A stretch of 64,000 nt of DNA from an uncultured Gemmatimonadaceae bacterium (GCA_963781585.1 CAWAGQ010000010.1:192001-256000); one strand, 5' to 3'. Positions 5,156 to 32,116 are shown, counted from the stretch's first letter. Notes: generated from the sequence alone by a model not told the origin. Numbers and translations: made by a program.

Positions 5156-7108
5156 ATGTGCGGCATTGCCGGTATCATCGCGCGCGACCCATCCGCCACC
5201 CCCGACTTGGCGCGGCTGGGCCTGATGCTCGAGTCGCTGGCCCATCGCGGTCCGGACGGGGAAGGGGTGCACGCCGACGGTCCGGCGGCCCTCGGGCACA
5301 AGCGGCTGGCCATCATCGATCTGGAAACCGGTCAGCAGCCGATGTGCAACGAAGACGGGTCGCTGTGGATCGTGCTGAACGGCGAGATCTACAACTACGT
5401 CGAGCTGCGACAGGGCCTCGAGCGCCACCACGAGTTCAGGACCAGGAGCGACACCGAAGTCATCCTCCATCTGTACGAGGAACTGGGTGAGCGCTGCCTC
5501 GATCGCCTCAATGGCATGTTCGCGTTCGCGATCTGGGACGGTCGGCAGCAGCGTCTGTTCGCCGCGCGCGACCGCCTGGGGATCAAGCCGTTGTACTGGA
5601 CGCTCTCGCCGGAGACGCTTGCATTCGCGAGCGAGCCCAAGGCGCTCCTGGCGGCCGGTCTGGCGCAGCCCGAACCCGATCCTCTGGCGCTCGAGGAATA
5701 CCTCACGTTCCAGTTCTGCCTGGGTGAGCGCACGCTGTTCCGGCAGATTCGCAAGCTGGAGCCGGGCCACTACCTCACATTCCGCCCGGGCCGCGATCAC
5801 GACCCGGCCATCGTGCGTTACTGGGCGTTCAACTACGAGCTCGATGTCCATCACACACCGGAGTACTTCCGCGAGACGCTGCGGGATCTGATCGACGATT
5901 CCGTGCGCATTCAGCTGCGGAGCGACGTCCCGGTGGGCGCGCATTGTTCGGGTGGCATCGATTCGTCCACGGTCGTCATGCTGGCGGCGCGGCACTACGG
6001 CGGACGACTGGCGACGTTCACGGGCGGATTCCGCGAAGGACCGCAGTACGACGAGACGGCCTATGCGCGCGCGGTCGCGGAGGCGGCCGGTTCCGAACAC
6101 TTCGAGGTCTGGCCAACGGCGCGCGAATTCACCGATTCGCTGCCGGAGCTCATCTATATGATGGATGAGCCGGCGGCCGGGCCCGGGGTCTTCCCGCAGT
6201 ATCAGGTCTCGCGGCTGGCGGCTCAGCACGTCAAGGTCGCCCTTGGCGGACAGGGGGGGGACGAGTTGTTCGGCGGCTACGCGCGCTACCTCGCGGCCTA
6301 TCTCGAACAGGCGCTGAAGGGCGCGATCGACGGCACCGACGCCGACGCACGATACGTCGTGACCTGGGAGAGCATCGCGCCGAGCCTGCCTCAACTCCAG
6401 CGATACCGTCCCCTCCTTCAGCGGTTCTGGCGTGACGGCCTGTTCGACGAAATGGACCGGCGCTACTTCCGCCTCGTCAGCCGGTTGGAGGACGCCGAGG
6501 CGCTGATGTCGGAGGACGTCTGGGGACCGCGCAGCGGAGAGCGCATCTTCGAGGGCTACTCGCGGATTTTCAACGACCCATCCACCAAGAGCTACTTCAA
6601 CAAGATGACGAACTTCGACCTGCGGACGCTGCTGCCGGCGCTGCTGCACGTCGAGGATCGCACCAGCATGAGCGCGTCACTCGAATCGCGCGTGCCTCTG
6701 CTCGATCATCGTATCGTCGAACTGGTCACACGCATTCCGCCGGCGCTGCGATTTCCCGGAGGCGATTCCAAGCGCATGCTCCGGGAGGCGGTCCAGCAGA
6801 TCATCCCGGAAGTGGTCTTCCGGCGTCGCGACAAGATGGGCTTCCCGGTGCCGCTCACCGAGTGGCTGCGCGGTCCGGCGCGCGACTTCGTGCGCGACAC
6901 GCTGCTGGGCTCACGAGCCCGGACCCGGGGCATCTATCGCATGGACGGCGTGGAGAAGCTCCTGGCCGCGAACGCGCCGTTCGACCGCCAGCTCTGGGGC
7001 GTATTGTGTCTCGAGCTCTGGTTCCAGGCGTTCGTCGACCGCGATCGACTGCTGCCGCGGCCACGGCTCACGCCACCGCTGGTGAAGGCAGCGGCGCCGG
7101 GCGACTGA
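5156..7108 (+). CDS. asnB: Asparagine synthase (glutamine-hydrolysing) family amidotransferase
   Basis: N-terminal MCGIAG, HRGPD, NGEIYNY, RDRLGIKPLY, SGGIDSS, GQGGDELFGGY, SLESRVPLLD, KMGFPVP. Confidence 0.95.
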   Translation: MCGIAGIIARDPSATPDLARLGLMLESLAHRGPDGEGVHADGPAALGHKRLAIIDLETGQQPMCNEDGSLWIVLNGEIYNYVELRQGLERHHEFRTRSDTEVILHLYEELGERCLDRLNGMFAFAIWDGRQQRLFAARDRLGIKPLYWTLSPETLAFASEPKALLAAGLAQPEPDPLALEEYLTFQFCLGERTLFRQIRKLEPGHYLTFRPGRDHDPAIVRYWAFNYELDVHHTPEYFRETLRDLIDDSVRIQLRSDVPVGAHCSGGIDSSTVVMLAARHYGGRLATFTGGFREGPQYDETAYARAVAEAAGSEHFEVWPTAREFTDSLPELIYMMDEPAAGPGVFPQYQVSRLAAQHVKVALGGQGGDELFGGYARYLAAYLEQALKGAIDGTDADARYVVTWESIAPSLPQLQRYRPLLQRFWRDGLFDEMDRRYFRLVSRLEDAEALMSEDVWGPRSGERIFEGYSRIFNDPSTKSYFNKMTNFDLRTLLPALLHVEDRTSMSASLESRVPLLDHRIVELVTRIPPALRFPGGDSKRMLREAVQQIIPEVVFRRRDKMGFPVPLTEWLRGPARDFVRDTLLGSRARTRGIYRMDGVEKLLAANAPFDRQLWGVLCLELWFQAFVDRDRLLPRPRLTPPLVKAAAPGD

Positions 7109-27057: not shown

Positions 27058-27298
27058 CGTTCTACTCCCTCTGATGATTTGTTGGGCCGTGTTCGGAGTG
27101 CATGATGCCGTACCGACCGACACAACGTGCTCGTGATCGTTGCCCTCACGACGGGCTCGCCCACGGAATGTGGACACATCTCATACAAAAAGACCTGCTC
27201 GCAATTCGGGCAGGCCCATTGCGCTCGGAATCCGCGCCCGCGCCACTCGCGCGTCGCGCTGCCAGAATATAGTGCATTGTTCGCCAGCGCGCCTGCCA

Positions 27299-27329
27299 GG
27301 GGGGAGGGGGAGGGGGGAGGGGGGAGGGG
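27299..27329 (+). repeat. Polypurine G-run tract (potential G-quadruplex)
   Basis: Five runs of 4-6 G separated by single A, between the divergent csp and LysM genes. Confidence 0.6.
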
Positions 27330-27523: not shown

Positions 27524-28387
27524 ATGAGCGCGCCGTCGTTATTGCTCCCAGGGCCCATAGCCGGCTTATGCCTGGCCGTTGCGGCGACCGCAGGTAGGGC
27601 GCAGAGCCTCCGGGGGTCGCACGAGTCGGTCGACCTGCAGCATCGTGTCGCCGTGCGGCAGGAGTACTCGTTCCTCCAGAACAGTGCGGACGTAAAACGG
27701 TTCGTACGGCTGGGACTCCTTGTCCCCGTGCCCGGTGGCATGCACTACGACCTGGCAGGGGTGTCGTTTCCCTACGCCCGGCCTGCGATCCGGACCTTCG
27801 TCGAGCGACTGTCGGCCCAGTACCAGGCGGCTTGCGACGAGCGGCTCGTCGTCACGAGTCTCACGCGCCCAATCGTGCGCCAGCCGGCCAACGCGTCGGA
27901 CGAGTCGGTGCACCCTACCGGGATGGCGGTTGACCTGCGTGTGAGCCCGGTGCGGAAGTGTCGTATCTGGCTGGAGCGGACACTGCTGTCGCTGGAGGGC
28001 TCGGGGGTCGTGGAGGCGACCCGGGAACATATGCCGCCGCACTATCACGTCGCGGTGTTCCCCGGGCAGTATGCCGTGTATGTCACGGCGGTGGAGCGCG
28101 TGCACGAGAGCCAGGTGGCGGCGGCAGCCTCGTCGAGCAGGCGCGCCGCGTCGGGCGCGAACGGCACGGCTGCATCGAGCAACGGCGCGGGCCCGTCGGA
28201 TGATGTGTCGGCGGCGGATCAGCCGGGATCCGGCTCGCCGTATCGGGTTCATCGTGGCGACTCGCTGTGGTCGATCGCGCGTGAGCACGATACCAGCGTC
28301 GAAGAGTTGAAGCAGCTCAACGGTCTCGCGTCCGACCGGATCGACGCCGGACAGGTGCTGCTGGTTCCGGGTTCGCAGTCGCGCTGA
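27524..28387 (+). CDS. Secreted DUF5715-like (LAS/M15-type) peptidase with C-terminal LysM domain
   Basis: Signal peptide; VTSLTRP, SVHPTGMAVDLR (H-x6-D), PHYHVAV (HxH); LysM YRVHRGDSLWSIAR...LKQLNGL...GQVLLVP. Confidence 0.85.
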   Translation: MSAPSLLLPGPIAGLCLAVAATAGRAQSLRGSHESVDLQHRVAVRQEYSFLQNSADVKRFVRLGLLVPVPGGMHYDLAGVSFPYARPAIRTFVERLSAQYQAACDERLVVTSLTRPIVRQPANASDESVHPTGMAVDLRVSPVRKCRIWLERTLLSLEGSGVVEATREHMPPHYHVAVFPGQYAVYVTAVERVHESQVAAAASSSRRAASGANGTAASSNGAGPSDDVSAADQPGSGSPYRVHRGDSLWSIAREHDTSVEELKQLNGLASDRIDAGQVLLVPGSQSR

Positions 28388-28503
28388 AATTCGTGGAAGC
28401 AGGGAGATGCGCGACGACGTGTCCCTGCCTCGCTCCGAGGTAATGCAGGTCCCCAGGCCTCGCTTCCGATCCGGTGGCGGTTACATTTTGGGGTCGGAGT
28501 TGA

Positions 28504-28817
28504 CGGGACGTAGCGCAGTCCGGTAGCGCACCTGAATGGGGTGGCGTTCGCTGCCGCCCGAGGCGGCATCGACCGCGAGTGCGCCGTCGCTGCGCTCCGG
28601 CTTCACACAGGGGGTCGCGGGTCCGCGACCCCACTGGCTTCGGTGGTAGTTTGAGGTCGACGGGACGTAGCGCAGTCCGGTAGCGCACCTGAATGGGGTG
28701 GCGTTCGCTGCCGCCCGAGGCGGCATCGACCGCGAGTGCGCCGTCGTTGCGCTCCGGCTTCACACAGGGGGTCGCTGGTCCGCGACCCCACCGGCTTCGG
28801 TGGTAGTTTGAGGGTGA
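28504..28817 (+). repeat. Two tandem 157-nt tRNA-Pro-derived units with anticodon-loop insertion (pseudo-tRNAs)
   Basis: Units start at 28504 and 28661. Each has 39 nt identical to the tRNA 5' half, a ~65-nt insert, CAGGGGGTCGC(G/T)GGT, then non-tRNA hairpins. Confidence 0.92.
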
Positions 28818-28891
28818 CGGGACGTAGCGCAGTCCGGTAGCGCACCTGAATGGGGTTCAGGGGGTCGCGGGTTCAAATCCCGCCGTCCCGA
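28818..28891 (+). tRNA. tRNA-Pro (anticodon GGG), CCA not encoded
   Basis: Acceptor CGGGACG/CGTCCCG+A; D-arm GCGC...GCGC; anticodon arm CCTGA-ATGGGGT-TCAGG; T-arm GCGGG-TTCAAAT-CCCGC. Confidence 0.97.
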
Positions 28892-28896
28892 TATTG

Positions 28897-28943
28897 AAGC
28901 GAAGACGCCGCGGGTATTTATGCCTGCGGCGTCTTCGCGCTTT
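28897..28943 (+). terminator. Long hairpin after tRNA-Pro (probable intrinsic terminator)
   Basis: GCGAAGACGCCGCGGGTA-TTTA-TGCCTGCGGCGTCTTCGC followed by a short T run. Confidence 0.65.
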
Positions 28944-29090
28944 GCGCCGGATTTTCCACATCGGCGCCGATCTGATGCCAGATATGGCATCCGTTGGGCG
29001 AAGATCGCGCCCAACACCCGCCCCAGAGGCCCCCTTCGCAGGGTCCATTGCCCACCCAAGCCAGTCGAGCCCATGGCGCACTCATATCCT

Positions 29091-29144
29091 ATATCGATAT
29101 CGCACTTGCCGCAAATCGATACGTAGCGTATTGTTAATCGATAT
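29091..29144 (+). promoter_or_regulatory. Sigma70-like promoter with three phased ATCGAT boxes
   Basis: TTGCCG (29106-29111)-N17-TATTGT (29129-29134); ATCGAT at 29093, 29115 and 29137. Confidence 0.7.
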
Positions 29145-29186
29145 GAAGAGGGAAGTCATTCCTGCATTTGTGAAGGAGGAGGTCTC

Positions 29187-29711
29187 GTGTCCCAAGCGTA
29201 CCCTCACACCCTGGCGCTGTCGCGGAGAGTCCTCCGTGTGCTGATCAAGCTCAATCTGCTCGCGGGCCTCCTCATCCTGGCTTTGCTGATTGCCAGCCTG
29301 ATCGCCGAAGCCCCGGTCATGCGAGCCCTCGGTGCAACACCCGCGTCCGGCGATTCCATGCTCTTCGCGGGCATGCGCGTGATCATGGTGATCGGCATTG
29401 TCGCCGTGCCAGTTGTGCACTTCGTCCTCTCGCGGCTCCTGACCATCGTCGAAACCGTCAGCGTCGGGAATCCCTTCGTGGCGGCGAACGCGGCGCGCCT
29501 GCAGGCAATCGCCTGGGCGATCCTGATACTCGAGCTGATGCACTTCGCCGTGGGCGCCGTTGCAGCCGGCGTATCCTCGGCCGCGGCACCGCTCAACATC
29601 GGCTGGAGTTTCTCCCTGTCGCGATGGCTCGCGGTGCTGCTCCTCTTCGTGTTGGCGCGCGTCTTCGAAACTGGCGCACGCATGCGCGAAGATCTCGAAG
29701 GGACGGTCTGA
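29187..29711 (+). CDS. DUF2975 family membrane protein
   Basis: Strong RBS AAGGAGGAGG; four TM segments; GNPFVAANAARLQ and LARVFETGARMREDLEGTV terminus. Confidence 0.9.
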   Translation: MSQAYPHTLALSRRVLRVLIKLNLLAGLLILALLIASLIAEAPVMRALGATPASGDSMLFAGMRVIMVIGIVAVPVVHFVLSRLLTIVETVSVGNPFVAANAARLQAIAWAILILELMHFAVGAVAAGVSSAAAPLNIGWSFSLSRWLAVLLLFVLARVFETGARMREDLEGTV

Positions 29712-29965: not shown

Positions 29966-30096
29966 CTGAACCTGATTCGGACACTACGGAATAACGCCGA
30001 TCACACCATGACCAGGAACTCAGTGCCACGCGCCCATGATCGACCTGATTCGCATCCGCGTTTGAGTGGAATGCATTCGCCTCAGGGGGAACGAGT

Positions 30097-30840
30097 ATGA
30101 ACGGCACTGCGTCAATGGGGCGGCTGACGGACATGTCGCCGCGGTTGAAGGCCAGACTTGCCGGCGCGTTCTACCTGGTCACCATGGTGGCGGGAGTATT
30201 CGCCCAGAACTTCGTGAGCGGCAGGCTCGTCACACCCGGCGACGCCGCAGCGACTGCGACCAACATCCTGGCGCACGAGTCGCTGTTTCGGTTTGGATTC
30301 GCAGTGTACCTCATCGAAATGGCGTGCCAGATCACGATGACGGCGCTCTTCTACGACTTGCTCAAGCCGGTGAGCCGGAGCGTGTCCCTGCTGGCGGCAA
30401 TCTTCAGCCTCGTCGGTTGCACCATCAAGACGCTGAGCCGCCTCTTCTTTTTCGTCCCATTGCTCGTCCTGGGAGGCGGGCACTACCTGAGCACATTCAG
30501 CCCCGGGCAGTTGCAGTCGTTGTCGCTCCTCTTTCTCCGCGTGAATTACCAGGCCGAGACAATCGCCATGGTGTTCTTTGGGTTGTATGCACTCGTGAAA
30601 GGCTACCTCGTGTTCAGGTCCACCTTTCTTCCCCGACTTCTTGGTGTGCTGTCGGCCGTTGGAGGTTTGGGTTGGCTGACCTATCTGTACGAGCCGTTCG
30701 CAGCGCGTATCCTCCCGTTCATACTGGCCGCCGCTTTCGTCGGAGCACTATCGAACGCCATCTGGCTCCTCGTGTACGGCGTGAACGAACAACGATGGAA
30801 GGAGCAGGCCAGCGCAGCAGCAGCTTCCATCTGGCGATGA
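30097..30840 (+). CDS. DUF4386 family membrane protein
   Basis: ARLAGAFYL, GDAAATATNILAHESLFR, LFYDLLKPV, FRSTFLPRLLG, WLLVYGVNEQRW. Confidence 0.85.
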   Translation: MNGTASMGRLTDMSPRLKARLAGAFYLVTMVAGVFAQNFVSGRLVTPGDAAATATNILAHESLFRFGFAVYLIEMACQITMTALFYDLLKPVSRSVSLLAAIFSLVGCTIKTLSRLFFFVPLLVLGGGHYLSTFSPGQLQSLSLLFLRVNYQAETIAMVFFGLYALVKGYLVFRSTFLPRLLGVLSAVGGLGWLTYLYEPFAARILPFILAAAFVGALSNAIWLLVYGVNEQRWKEQASAAAASIWR

Positions 30841-30973
30841 AAGCCGTTGCCTCTGGGGGCGTGCCGACCATCGGTCCAATCATCCAGCTGAGCCGCTCCT
30901 GCGGATTCATCGGATAGCGGAACGACGGCCAGCGTCGCAGCGAACAACGGTGTCCGAGGGCACAACCCCCGTA

Positions 30974-31477
30974 TCAGCGCCCCGCCGGCTGCGCCATCTG
31001 CTTGAAGAACTCCACGGCCCGCGCATTCATCTCTCCCGGAGTGAGATCTTCCTTCCGCGTCGCGATCCACCAGGTGTAGCCCGCCGGATCCGATACGGCG
31101 CCCGCACGGTCGCCCCAGAACTGGTCAGCCATGGGCATCTGGACCGTCGCGCCCTCGCGGACGGCACGACCGAACAGCGCGTCGCTGTTTTCGACGAACA
31201 CCCACAAGGACGCGGGCGATCCACCGAACGCCTTCGGGCCTTTCCCGCCCATCATCACGTCGTTCATCATGAAGCGCGAATCTCCGATCCTGAGCTCCGC
31301 GTGCATGATCTTGCCGTCAGGCCCAACGCTGCGACTCACCTCCTCCGCGCCGAGAGCCTTCTTGTACCAGTCGATCGTCCGGGCCGCGTCGTCCAGGGTG
31401 AGTTGCGGCGAGATCGTGTGATAGCCCGCCGGGACCGGCTTCGCTGCTTTCGCCATCTGAACCTCCGTTGTTGCCAT
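30974..31477 (-). CDS. VOC/glyoxalase family protein (PhnB-like)
   Basis: KPVPAGYHTISPQL, IMHAELRIGDS, DQFWGDR, DPAGYTWWIAT; start may be ATG 31456. Confidence 0.9.
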   Translation of the reverse strand: MATTEVQMAKAAKPVPAGYHTISPQLTLDDAARTIDWYKKALGAEEVSRSVGPDGKIMHAELRIGDSRFMMNDVMMGGKGPKAFGGSPASLWVFVENSDALFGRAVREGATVQMPMADQFWGDRAGAVSDPAGYTWWIATRKEDLTPGEMNARAVEFFKQMAQPAGR

Positions 31478-31564
31478 CGATCAGCGTCATCATCGAGGAA
31501 ACGCAGCACCATAGTCAGTGCCCGTGGCCCGACGCAAGCTGGACCCTTCGCGACGCCGCACAGA

Positions 31565-31990
31565 TCAACCCGCTGCCGCGGCGCTCGCGCGCTCGTGCAG
31601 GACTGTCCATAGCGTTCCGAACCGGTCGCGCAACTGGCCGAATCGCGTCGCAAAGAACGTCTCCTGCAGTTTCATCCCCACCTCACCGCCGTCCGCGAGC
31701 GCCGCGTAGATCCGCTCTGCTTCTTCCGCCGAGTCCAGGGAGAGGTACAGGTACGAACTCCGCACCGGCTGGAAGTGCTTCGGGGGAACGTCGTTGCCGA
31801 TCAGCTCACCGCCCGCAATGTCCATGCGAATGTGGATCACGGCATCGGCTGAGCCCGGAGGGGGTGGCACCTCGGGCGGGAGGTCCTTCACCCGCATTAT
31901 CATCGTGATGTGTCCGCCGAGGTGCTTCTCGTAGTAGCGGAACGCTTCTTCGCAGTTGCCACCGAAGTTCAGGTGTGTGTGGAGCTTCAT
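31565..31990 (-). CDS. VOC family protein (PhnB-like)
   Basis: LNFGGNCEEAFRYY, LADGGEV, ETFFATRFGQLRDRFGTLW. Confidence 0.9.
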   Translation of the reverse strand: MKLHTHLNFGGNCEEAFRYYEKHLGGHITMIMRVKDLPPEVPPPPGSADAVIHIRMDIAGGELIGNDVPPKHFQPVRSSYLYLSLDSAEEAERIYAALADGGEVGMKLQETFFATRFGQLRDRFGTLWTVLHERASAAAAG

Positions 31991-32116
31991 CGTCGGTCTC
32001 CGGATTCAGGGAATCAGCGTTACTCATATTCTGCATGATCTCCTGCGCTACCGTCATACTCGCGAGCTGGGCCGTCTTCGTTCTCGTTCATGTCTCACGC
32101 GTAGAGGAGGGCTGTC

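Follow-up and report, generated by a model that had tools for sequence, protein, structure and literature searches.

Two tandem units built on the 5' half of tRNA-Pro(GGG) in a Gemmatimonadaceae genome, a possible miniature remnant of a 5'-fragment island

Short DNA that lacks an integrase and is flanked by attachment (att) sites is known from the cis-mobilisable elements of streptococcal integrative and conjugative elements (ICEs), which stand in tandem at a tRNA site, are kb-sized and carry 3' tRNA fragments. The present study concerns a tandem array of two 157-nt units, each opening with a displaced 5' half of tRNA-Pro(GGG), upstream of the intact tRNA gene in a 64,000-nt stretch of DNA (the window) from an uncultured Gemmatimonadaceae bacterium (GCA_963781585.1, CAWAGQ010000010.1:192001-256000). 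Islands bordered by such 5' fragments have been catalogued. Of the 3919 islands in the Islander catalogue 159 have a 5' fragment, and the catalogue also counts 125 tandem arrays. Islander defines an island by a tRNA gene (tDNA) and an equally oriented terminal fragment of it, which enclose a tyrosine integrase gene, and by a length of 2-200 kb (PMC4383910). The fragment arrangement is found in the window: the orphan halves, which start at 28504 and 28661, stand 5' of the tRNA in its own orientation and match it exactly over 39 nt. The other two properties are not, as the repeats are separated by 118 nt with no PF00589 hit among the 49 open reading frames (ORFs) scanned, and the unit measures 157 nt as against 2-200 kb. 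Partial tRNA genes left by element integration are common, adjacent to the complete gene and prone to mis-annotation (van der Gulik et al. 2023, PMC9897764). In tRNA-dependent lysogeny (Guerrero-Bustamante and Hatfull 2024) integration does not rebuild the disrupted tRNA copy and an intact tRNA of the same isotype lies nearby (PMC10865867).

The array is a genuine feature that cannot be classed as a tRNA, as an intron or, within the window, as a dispersed repeat. Our best explanation, to which we give about an even chance of being right, is that the units are a miniature, integrase-less remnant of a 5'-fragment island that was doubled by unequal recombination or slippage between 41-nt repeats. 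The array is best filed as a miniature variant, doubled in tandem, of the 5'-fragment att scars already known at tRNA genes. It belongs to a conserved module of Gemmatimonadota tRNA-Pro(GGG) loci of which no description was found in the open-access literature.

Anatomy of the array

Tandem Repeats Finder reported an array with a period of 157 nt at 28502-28856 (2.3 copies, 97% matches, 0% indels, score 675), and direct reading placed the start of the same 39-nt string, the tRNA 5' half, at 28504, 28661 and 28818. Units 1 (28504-28660) and 2 (28661-28817) thus each measure 157 nt and precede tRNA-Pro(GGG). The orphan half comprises the acceptor 5' strand, the D arm, the anticodon stem 5' strand and the whole anticodon loop. 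In each unit tRNA positions 1-38 are followed by a 65-nt insert, a block equal to tRNA positions 40-54, a palindrome, a small hairpin and a tail ending TAGTTTGAGGTCGA, and the T loop and acceptor 3' strand are replaced by the palindrome and the tail. Successive 5' halves are therefore separated by a spacer of 118 nt that holds the predicted hairpins A, B, C (and D) and a short tail (Table 1). The tRNA-like block spans the anticodon stem 3' strand, the variable region and the T-stem 5' strand; in hairpin C the variable/T-stem strand pairs with its own complement and no T arm is formed. A 32-nt piece of the insert occurs twice in the window at up to 3 mismatches, where 0 occurrences were expected from 100 shuffles.

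Comparison of the two 157-nt units gives exactly five differences, at unit positions 87, 116, 132, 154 and 155. Two of these are changes from C-G to U-G in stems, both of which retain plus-strand pairing, one lies in a loop and two lie in the tail; in hairpin D the difference reads T-G versus C-G and the pairing is preserved. ARAGORN found a single tRNA gene in the 64-kb window, the third copy, and Rfam agreed. When 28300-29100 was searched against Rfam at E<=10, units 1 and 2 gave no tRNA match and nothing near the gathering score.

These results bear out the anatomy given in an earlier, sequence-only reading of the same DNA. It had noted the exact 157-nt array, the third copy as the only normal tRNA, an insert of about 65 nt followed by about 15 nt of resumed tRNA (the match over 15 nt is exact), the loss of the T loop and 3' acceptor strand from both units and about five differences between them. 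It had also proposed searches with tRNAscan-SE/ARAGORN and Infernal; ARAGORN and Rfam called the third copy and not the units.

Table 1. Positions of the array components and adjoining signals, counted from the first nucleotide of the window. Folds are predicted.
Feature	Position	Strand	Basis or remark
Weak -10-like hexamer, TACATT (putative)	28482-28487	+	22 nt 5' of unit 1; consensus scan without promoter
Orphan 5' half no. 1, 39 nt, canonical tRNA positions 1-38	28504-28542	+	identical to real tRNA
65-nt insert, unit 1	28543-28607	+	sequence comparison with tRNA
Hairpin A, unit 1, nested 3+3+7 bp stem	28544-28576	+	predicted fold; unique in window
Hairpin B, unit 1	28579-28606	+	predicted fold; core 28583-28601 (GCCG, TC, GC, TGC, GC, TC, CGGC), outer GTG/CAC helix
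15-nt block CAGGGGGTCGCGGGT, tRNA positions 40-54	28608-28622	+	100% over 15 nt to 28858-28872
Hairpin C, palindrome GGGGTCGCGG GT CCGCGACCCC	28611-28632	+	predicted fold and sequence
Hairpin D (CCACTG GCTT CGGTGG)	28631-28646	+	predicted fold
-10-like hexamer, TAGTTT	28647-28652	+	ends 8 nt ahead of unit 2 start
Unit 2, parts shifted by 157 nt	28661-28817	+	repeat finder and unit alignment
Orphan half, unit 2	28661-28699	+	
Hairpin A, unit 2	28701-28733	+	
Hairpin B core, unit 2	28740-28758	+	
tRNA-like block, unit 2	28765-28779	+	
Hairpin C, unit 2	28768-28789	+	
Hairpin D, unit 2	28788-28803	+	
TAGTTT, unit 2	28804-28809	+	
Functional tRNA-Pro(GGG), no encoded CCA	28818-28891	+	ARAGORN; Rfam RF00005, 66.1 bits
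18-bp terminator-like hairpin ending the tRNA transcription unit	28899-28938	+	predicted fold

Related loci and the shared junction

Species-representative genomes were scanned for the tRNA 5' half followed by a non-T base, a search that finds interrupted copies whatever comes after the break. The scan returned 26 loci with the 5' half broken after position 38, by record title 19 from Gemmatimonadota, 3 from Chloroflexota, 3 from Aurantimonadaceae and 1 unclassified; the pattern demands a break at this place, and the common junction is partly by construction. The survey sampled only genomes with an orphan half, and both points count against the island remnant. An intact tRNA-Pro(GGG) followed on the same strand in 13 of the 26 loci. 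At eight short-distance loci, all from Gemmatimonadota metagenome-assembled genomes (MAGs; L004, L005, L007, L011, L016, L018, L021 and L023), the distances from orphan to tRNA were, in ascending order, 115, 149, 154, 155, 157, 159, 167 and 183 nt, and at five others (L027, L019, L015, L012 and L028) they were 1.06, 2.5, 3.5, 5.2 and 5.9 kb. Taken together, the distances from 115 nt to 5.9 kb would make up a size series that leads from mini-units to islands. The eight short loci carry one unit each, and a two-unit array was found in 0 of the 26 loci.

The eight short units align with those of the window, giving ten aligned units in all, and they have in common the 5' half, a hairpin A directly after it, a conserved hairpin B and a hairpin C. 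In about 369 kb, made up of the window and the 26 loci, every match of a profile of the non-tRNA part was linked to tRNA-Pro(GGG). Among 72,556 plasmids and 50,697 phages only the tRNA part (query 1-40) was matched, in 6 and 2 records. No Rfam family was found for the units of the eight short loci, and the unit showed no similarity to the ends of the L028-type island described below. The flanks of the window were not syntenic with any locus when nine window proteins were compared with the 26 loci (tblastn, E<0.1), which also speaks against the island remnant; all-against-all blastp of the ORFs found conserved flanks only between L008 and L016, and L008 and L021 are contigs of one MAG. L008, which ends a contig, and L021, which begins one, overlap by 141 bases, the overlap ends 11 nt into the insert of the unit, and both names begin with k141. 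This overlap suggests a branch in the assembly graph, and hence variation of the unit in sequence or copy number in the population. At 5117-7162 of L008, 3-5 kb from the tRNA-Pro module, there are eight tRNA genes (Gly, Thr, Leu, Asp, Glu, Glu, Trp and His). A complete tRNA-Pro(GGG) was seen at 2501-2577 of L001 (MT121966, deposited as Pseudomonas phage SC_8_H2H8_2017), where the record has no annotated feature.

The same orphan half also borders integrase genes. In three loci, L020 (Jiella), L022 (Aurantimonas) and L013 (a Limnocylindrales MAG), it is immediately followed by a tyrosine integrase gene of opposite orientation (PF00589, E 1e-22 to 1e-30), and an Aurantimonadaceae MAG (L017) has the same arrangement according to blastp against the integrase ORFs of L020 and L022. 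In a Gemmatimonadales MAG (L028) the integrase gene ends about 190 nt 5' of the intact tRNA and the orphan lies 5.9 kb upstream at the far end of the island. This integrase is unrelated to the Jiella type; two unrelated integrase families use the same junction. L006, L009, L010, L014 and L026 share a conserved left end with the L028-type element. Inside this left end, about 500 nt after the orphan half, L009 (8893-9948, minus strand) and L026 (1281-2336, minus strand) carry IS110-family transposase genes (DEDD_Tnp_IS110 and Transposase_20). Within the island, L009, L014 and L028 hold inverted copies of the 3' part of a tRNA-Pro-like gene on the other strand, some 210-260 nt past the orphan and in L028 also at +4101, and ARAGORN called none of these copies. 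In Rhizobium phage RHph_I3_18 (MN988542; L002) an orphan 5' half of tRNA-Pro(GGG) is found 40 nt away from the end of an integrase gene whose product is 46% identical to the integrase adjoining the Jiella orphan. The half is preceded by TTGCGC-N17-TAATGG, and ARAGORN found no full tRNA there. Judged by this preceding motif, the phage site would be an attP that supplies a promoter together with the 5' half.

Fragments accumulate on both sides of the gene at further loci. L004 and L007 have integrase genes just 3' of the tRNA, L007 with a displaced 3' half at +4103, and in L009 the 5' fragment is preceded, at a distance of 338 nt, by another. ORFs that lie between the repeats of L012, L019 and L027, in segments of 1-5 kb, gave no Pfam match at E<=0.05. 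Three 5' fragments are present in L015, and the profile gave an extra match to the hairpins B-C of this locus at 6641-6703, in which the 19-nt hairpin B core is identical. Here B-C stands 3 kb after the orphan half with a protein kinase gene in between, followed by two degenerate 5' fragments and the real tRNA. Since B-C is set apart from the orphan in this way, L015 suggests that hairpin A and the B-C-tail part could be the two ends of a formerly larger element. The order along 3579-7161 of L015 is orphan half, terminator-like hairpins, Ser/Thr kinase gene, B-C, a degenerate 5' piece, a 25-nt 5' piece and the intact tRNA, and the 5' copies are flanked by short GCTGGCAGC or AGCTAA-type repeats.

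On the 3' side, L011, L016 and L021 carry short tandem repeats with 3' tRNA fragments. The repeat of L011 has a period of 91 nt and covers 0-340 nt 3' of tRNA-Pro (the locus is on the minus strand); each copy comprises a terminator hairpin, a spacer of about 40 nt and 16-19 nt from the tRNA 3' end. Counted from the orphan start, two extra 3' fragments lie at +306 and +397. The L011 repeat is a 3'-side counterpart of the 5' array in the window. At 320-500 of L021, and likewise in L016 and L018, a conserved spacer of 60-100 nt 3' of tRNA-Pro ends in a copy of the T-loop-to-3'-end part, in L021 in two copies with a 62-nt period. So the 3' side too would carry a conserved mini-module, common to three species (L016, L018 and L021). 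From the integrases and the 5' and 3' fragments at these loci, tRNA-Pro(GGG) is an integration hot spot in these lineages, with fragment pile-ups common on both sides.

Conserved hairpins and promoter-like motifs of the spacer

Hairpin A varies between species in sequence and length, and a strong hairpin was nevertheless predicted in its region in all ten units. Hairpin B is the most conserved spacer element across species. It follows the pattern G-N-C-G, UC or GC, GC, loop, GC, UC or GC, C-G-N'-C, and in every unit its centre lies 63-75 nt 5' of the tRNA start (about 69 nt 5' of the next copy for unit 1 of the window). Hairpin C of the short units is built on (A)TCAGGGGG(A)TCGC, followed by 25-35 nt, and its palindrome is conserved in nine of the ten aligned units. 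Pairing of the orphan 5' strand with the right arm of hairpin B in an acceptor-like helix was considered by eye and rejected, because the base opposite A5 covaries with the base that it pairs with in hairpin B (columns 103 and 120).

The 3' part of the spacer probably supplies the promoter of the next copy, as suggested by -10-like hexamers, the spacing of GCGACC and the position of hairpin B. A TAG(A/G/T)TT hexamer stands 8-10 nt ahead of the tRNA gene of the window and of L007, L016 and L018 (TAnnnT at -14 to -16), which makes four of the nine genomes with a unit, and three more units have looser hexamers (GATATT, ACGATT or GTTATT) by eye. The 3' arm of hairpin C in the window, GCGACC, lies 16 nt 5' of the TAGTTT hexamer as a possible -35; this motif (GCAACC in L018) stands 15-16 nt 5' of the hexamer in five of eight units. 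The same TAGTTT stands ahead of the unit 2 orphan and ahead of the real tRNA. With such promoters, transcription of unit 2 into a pseudo-tRNA would be driven from unit 1, and that of the real tRNA from unit 2; a promoter role would explain why this part of the spacer is kept.

Between unit 1 and the tRNA no canonical terminator was found, the sole strong one being the hairpin after the tRNA (Table 1), which the consensus terminator scan did not call because of its short T run. The array is bordered by ordinary genes, a LysM/DUF5715 protein gene that ends at 28387 and a DUF2975 gene that starts at 29187. An AGGGGGG heptamer is repeated 4.7 times at 27298-27329 of the window, inside the LysM/DUF5715 ORF. 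Just 3' of the tRNA, the G+C content dips to 62.4% at 30000-32000 (about 67% otherwise) over a DUF4386 gene (30097-30840) and an ORF without Pfam hit (30950-31612), and no 3' tRNA fragment marks an island end in this dip.

Origin of the units and comparison with known systems

We infer both the integrase origin of the short units and the mechanism of their duplication. A tyrosine-integrase element of the minority 5'-fragment class would recombine in the anticodon loop of tRNA-Pro(GGG) and bring its own promoter and 5' half, leaving a displaced, non-functional 5' half cut at the 3' edge of the anticodon loop. The orphan half would then be an attL-type fragment, the spacer the residual element and the intact tRNA the attR side. 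After loss of the integrase the element would be reduced to its two ends, and Gemmatimonadota would have the module in common, by descent or by exchange, in single-unit form. Its doubling in the present genome would be due to unequal homologous recombination, or to slippage during replication, at the identical 41-nt repeats; a second site-specific insertion would give the same structure. The sequence-only reading had dismissed an att scar on the ground that a 5' half is duplicated upstream; this argument falls, since 5'-fragment islands are known and the same half adjoins tyrosine integrases elsewhere. Its proposal of a tRNA-targeting miniature element came close as far as insertion specific to the anticodon loop and amplification in tandem are concerned. 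The insert is not a dispersed miniature element, as the profile matched only sites linked to tRNA-Pro(GGG). Within the 369 kb covered, the same profile search speaks against a common repetitive extragenic palindrome (REP) without tRNA preference, named there as a refuting outcome, and did not find the insert at the same position in other tRNAs, for instance at the eight tRNA genes of L008.

Several observations weigh against a reduced island. A Pfam scan of 49 ORFs of the window detected no integrase, recombinase or transposase domain, and in this range the earlier statement that no integrase is nearby holds. The unit lies far below any known island in size, Islander requiring at least 2 kb and an integrase, and a one-step 5'-type integration leaves the block of tRNA positions 40-54 and the T-stem palindrome unexplained. 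The consensus scan of 28300-29200 found no promoter or terminator, and a strict TAnnnT hexamer was present in only 5 of 14 regions upstream of real tRNAs. The spacer is also constrained in sequence: comparison of L016 with L021/L008 gives 79.5% identity for the coding DNA of the flanks and no alignment for the intergenic DNA 5' of the orphan, whereas A-B-C differs at 2 of 89 spacer positions (98% identity), with the tail at about 68%. A decaying scar would not be expected to be conserved in this way, and the unit could be deleted by repeat recombination and yet is retained in nine genomes. The identity of A-B-C and the retention of the unit make some selection on the spacer likely. One may therefore suppose, tentatively and as a minority view, that the orphan half with A-B-C is a domesticated module under purifying selection that is conserved across Gemmatimonadota, a structured RNA or cis-regulatory leader derived from tRNA-Pro(GGG) by way of an att-site scar. 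Such a module may control expression or processing of tRNA-Pro(GGG), or present a decoy D arm and GGG anticodon loop, and its copy number may be tunable by repeat recombination, as in the two-unit array. Rather unlikely to us is the related proposal that the orphan half and hairpins A-B-C are transcribed as a stable and structured functional RNA, be it a pseudo-tRNA or the 5' leader of pre-tRNA-Pro, and that the array is a gene amplification. Such an RNA would serve as a regulator, in pre-tRNA processing, or as a decoy for nucleases or other enzymes that recognise the D arm and the GGG anticodon loop. Besides the conservation of A-B-C next to diverged genes and unalignable intergenic DNA, the proposal can draw on the strong hairpin in the A region of all ten units despite changes of sequence and length, the two of five unit differences that preserve pairing in stems, the lack of a canonical terminator from unit 1 to the tRNA and the TAGTTT ahead of the unit 2 orphan. 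One pair of hairpin B switches between C:G, A:U and U:A, and in three of five measures (percent paired, both-side changed cells and covariation score) only 2 of 500 shuffles reached the observed value. However, among 15 tested pairs in ten sequences only one showed double changes, and five never vary and are uninformative either way. Folding was better for the plus strand in six of ten units and for the minus strand in four, and G-U pairs were equivocal on the selected strand. There is no Rfam family, most orphans lack a -10-like hexamer upstream, and without a T loop and acceptor 3' strand the product cannot be a tRNA substrate. Hairpins B and C could equally be DNA sites, such as a promoter or an upstream activating sequence.

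An origin without any integrase appears unlikely, though several features agree with it. Plain tandem duplication would have given a pair of tRNA-Pro(GGG) genes with promoters, of which the upstream one decayed through an insertion of 65-90 nt after position 38 and a T-loop deletion, while gene conversion from the live gene kept its 5' half identical. The units hold tRNA positions 1-38 as well as 40-54; hairpin C of L004, L005 and L018 is a T stem with its loop shrunk to AA, followed by a degenerate acceptor 3' strand. With this T stem remnant the unit looks like a whole tRNA copy that received an insertion after position 38 and lost its T loop. The repeat reaches 12-27 nt 5' of the tRNA start in L011, L023 and L019, and the 91-nt repeats 3' of the L011 gene look like simple tandem duplications. 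In all eight short loci and both window units the orphan and the neighbouring real tRNA share the same species-specific D-loop variant (TCC, CCC or CTC), which points to gene conversion or concerted evolution; in L012, with a 5.2-kb segment between them, the two differ in the D loop. On the other hand the break is sharp and falls exactly where integrase islands and the phage break the same tRNA, and neither the origin of hairpins A and B nor the reason for their conservation is explained. Simple duplication of the native upstream region was rejected, the intergenic DNA before unit 1 being no closer to the spacer than shuffles are (score 16, shuffle mean 15.9). We consider it very unlikely that the unit is an active tRNA-targeting mobile element, a cargo-less 157-bp module that the integrase of some other locus would move in trans, with repeated insertion into anticodon loops, which was the chief proposal of the sequence-only reading. 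Its different genomic contexts, without synteny except between L008/L021 and L016, the two tandem copies in the attL-attP-attR layout of a tandem integration and the variation suggested by the overlap that ends inside the unit would fit. Against it, the module occurred only at tRNA-Pro(GGG), and at no other tRNA or elsewhere, in the 369 kb covered by the profile, and the plasmids and phages screened matched only the tRNA part. Moreover, the tail has diverged between L016 and L021 and A-B-C has not, which is unlike a recent transfer of a whole unit, and a 157-bp circle is very small for integrase synapsis. Least credible of all is an assembly artefact, an intron-containing tRNA or a split tRNA. 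Such repeats can be mis-assembled and the insert sits at the usual place of a tRNA intron, but five differences between the units and single-copy homologous units in eight other assemblies disfavour an artefact, the exact copy number apart. Bacterial group I introns of tRNA genes measure about 200 nt or more, have a conserved catalytic core and are flanked by exons that form a complete tRNA. Here the insert is 65 nt long without a group I or other Rfam intron hit, and its removal still leaves the T loop and acceptor 3' strand missing, which rules out a group I intron in the anticodon loop, as the sequence-only reading had held. In split tRNAs of the Nanoarchaeum type a separate 3' half is preceded by a sequence complementary to the tail of the 5' half; the window holds no second tRNA 3' half at up to 3 mismatches. 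Also ruled out are a canonical tRNA, for which ARAGORN and Rfam are silent on units 1 and 2 and pass the third copy, and, within the window, a dispersed REP or miniature inverted-repeat transposable element, the insert occurring only in the two array copies in 64 kb, and insert and hairpin A being unique in the window and loci.

If the units are indeed a reduced 5'-fragment island, elements that replace the 5' half of a tRNA gene (about 4% of the catalogued islands) could shrink to remnants of about 120 bp, an outcome that has drawn little notice. The remnants would stay with the tRNA across species, would match it in conservation for one species pair or more, and could re-amplify in tandem. 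Should the remnant also supply the tRNA promoter, this would be a clear case of a host gene dependent on DNA of a mobile element. The units confuse tRNA annotation as well as island finders, which drop candidates below 2 kb or without an integrase. They also mark the tRNA-Pro(GGG) gene as an integration hot spot of several lineages, with two unrelated integrase families at one junction.

Among the known systems, 5'-fragment islands as given in the Islander source share with the window the intact tRNA, the 5' fragment upstream in the same orientation, the break in the anticodon loop and the occurrence of tandem arrays (125 known), and the same orphan half borders integrase segments in L013, L017, L020, L022 and L028. 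The window differs from them in having no integrase and a spacer of only 118 nt, which is conserved and contains the block of tRNA positions 40-54. The attP of phage RHph_I3_18 is similar in its promoter-like sequence and its orphan tRNA-Pro(GGG) 5' half that ends in the anticodon loop. It belongs to a full temperate phage, however, its tRNA half is about 90% identical to that of the window, and it lacks A-B-C. The streptococcal cis-mobilisable elements resemble the units as short att-flanked DNA without recombination genes; the units measure 157 nt, and their mobility would be a proposal only. The succession of 5' half, insert and 3'-like piece in our units resembles a disrupted copy of tRNA-dependent lysogeny, but the described case has a core of about 10 bp and a phage-borne tRNA in a mycobacterial prophage, and no phage is present here (PMC10865867). 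The partial tRNA genes in the published account flank elements of 9-23 kb (PMC9897764), whereas those of the window form short, conserved modules in tandem.

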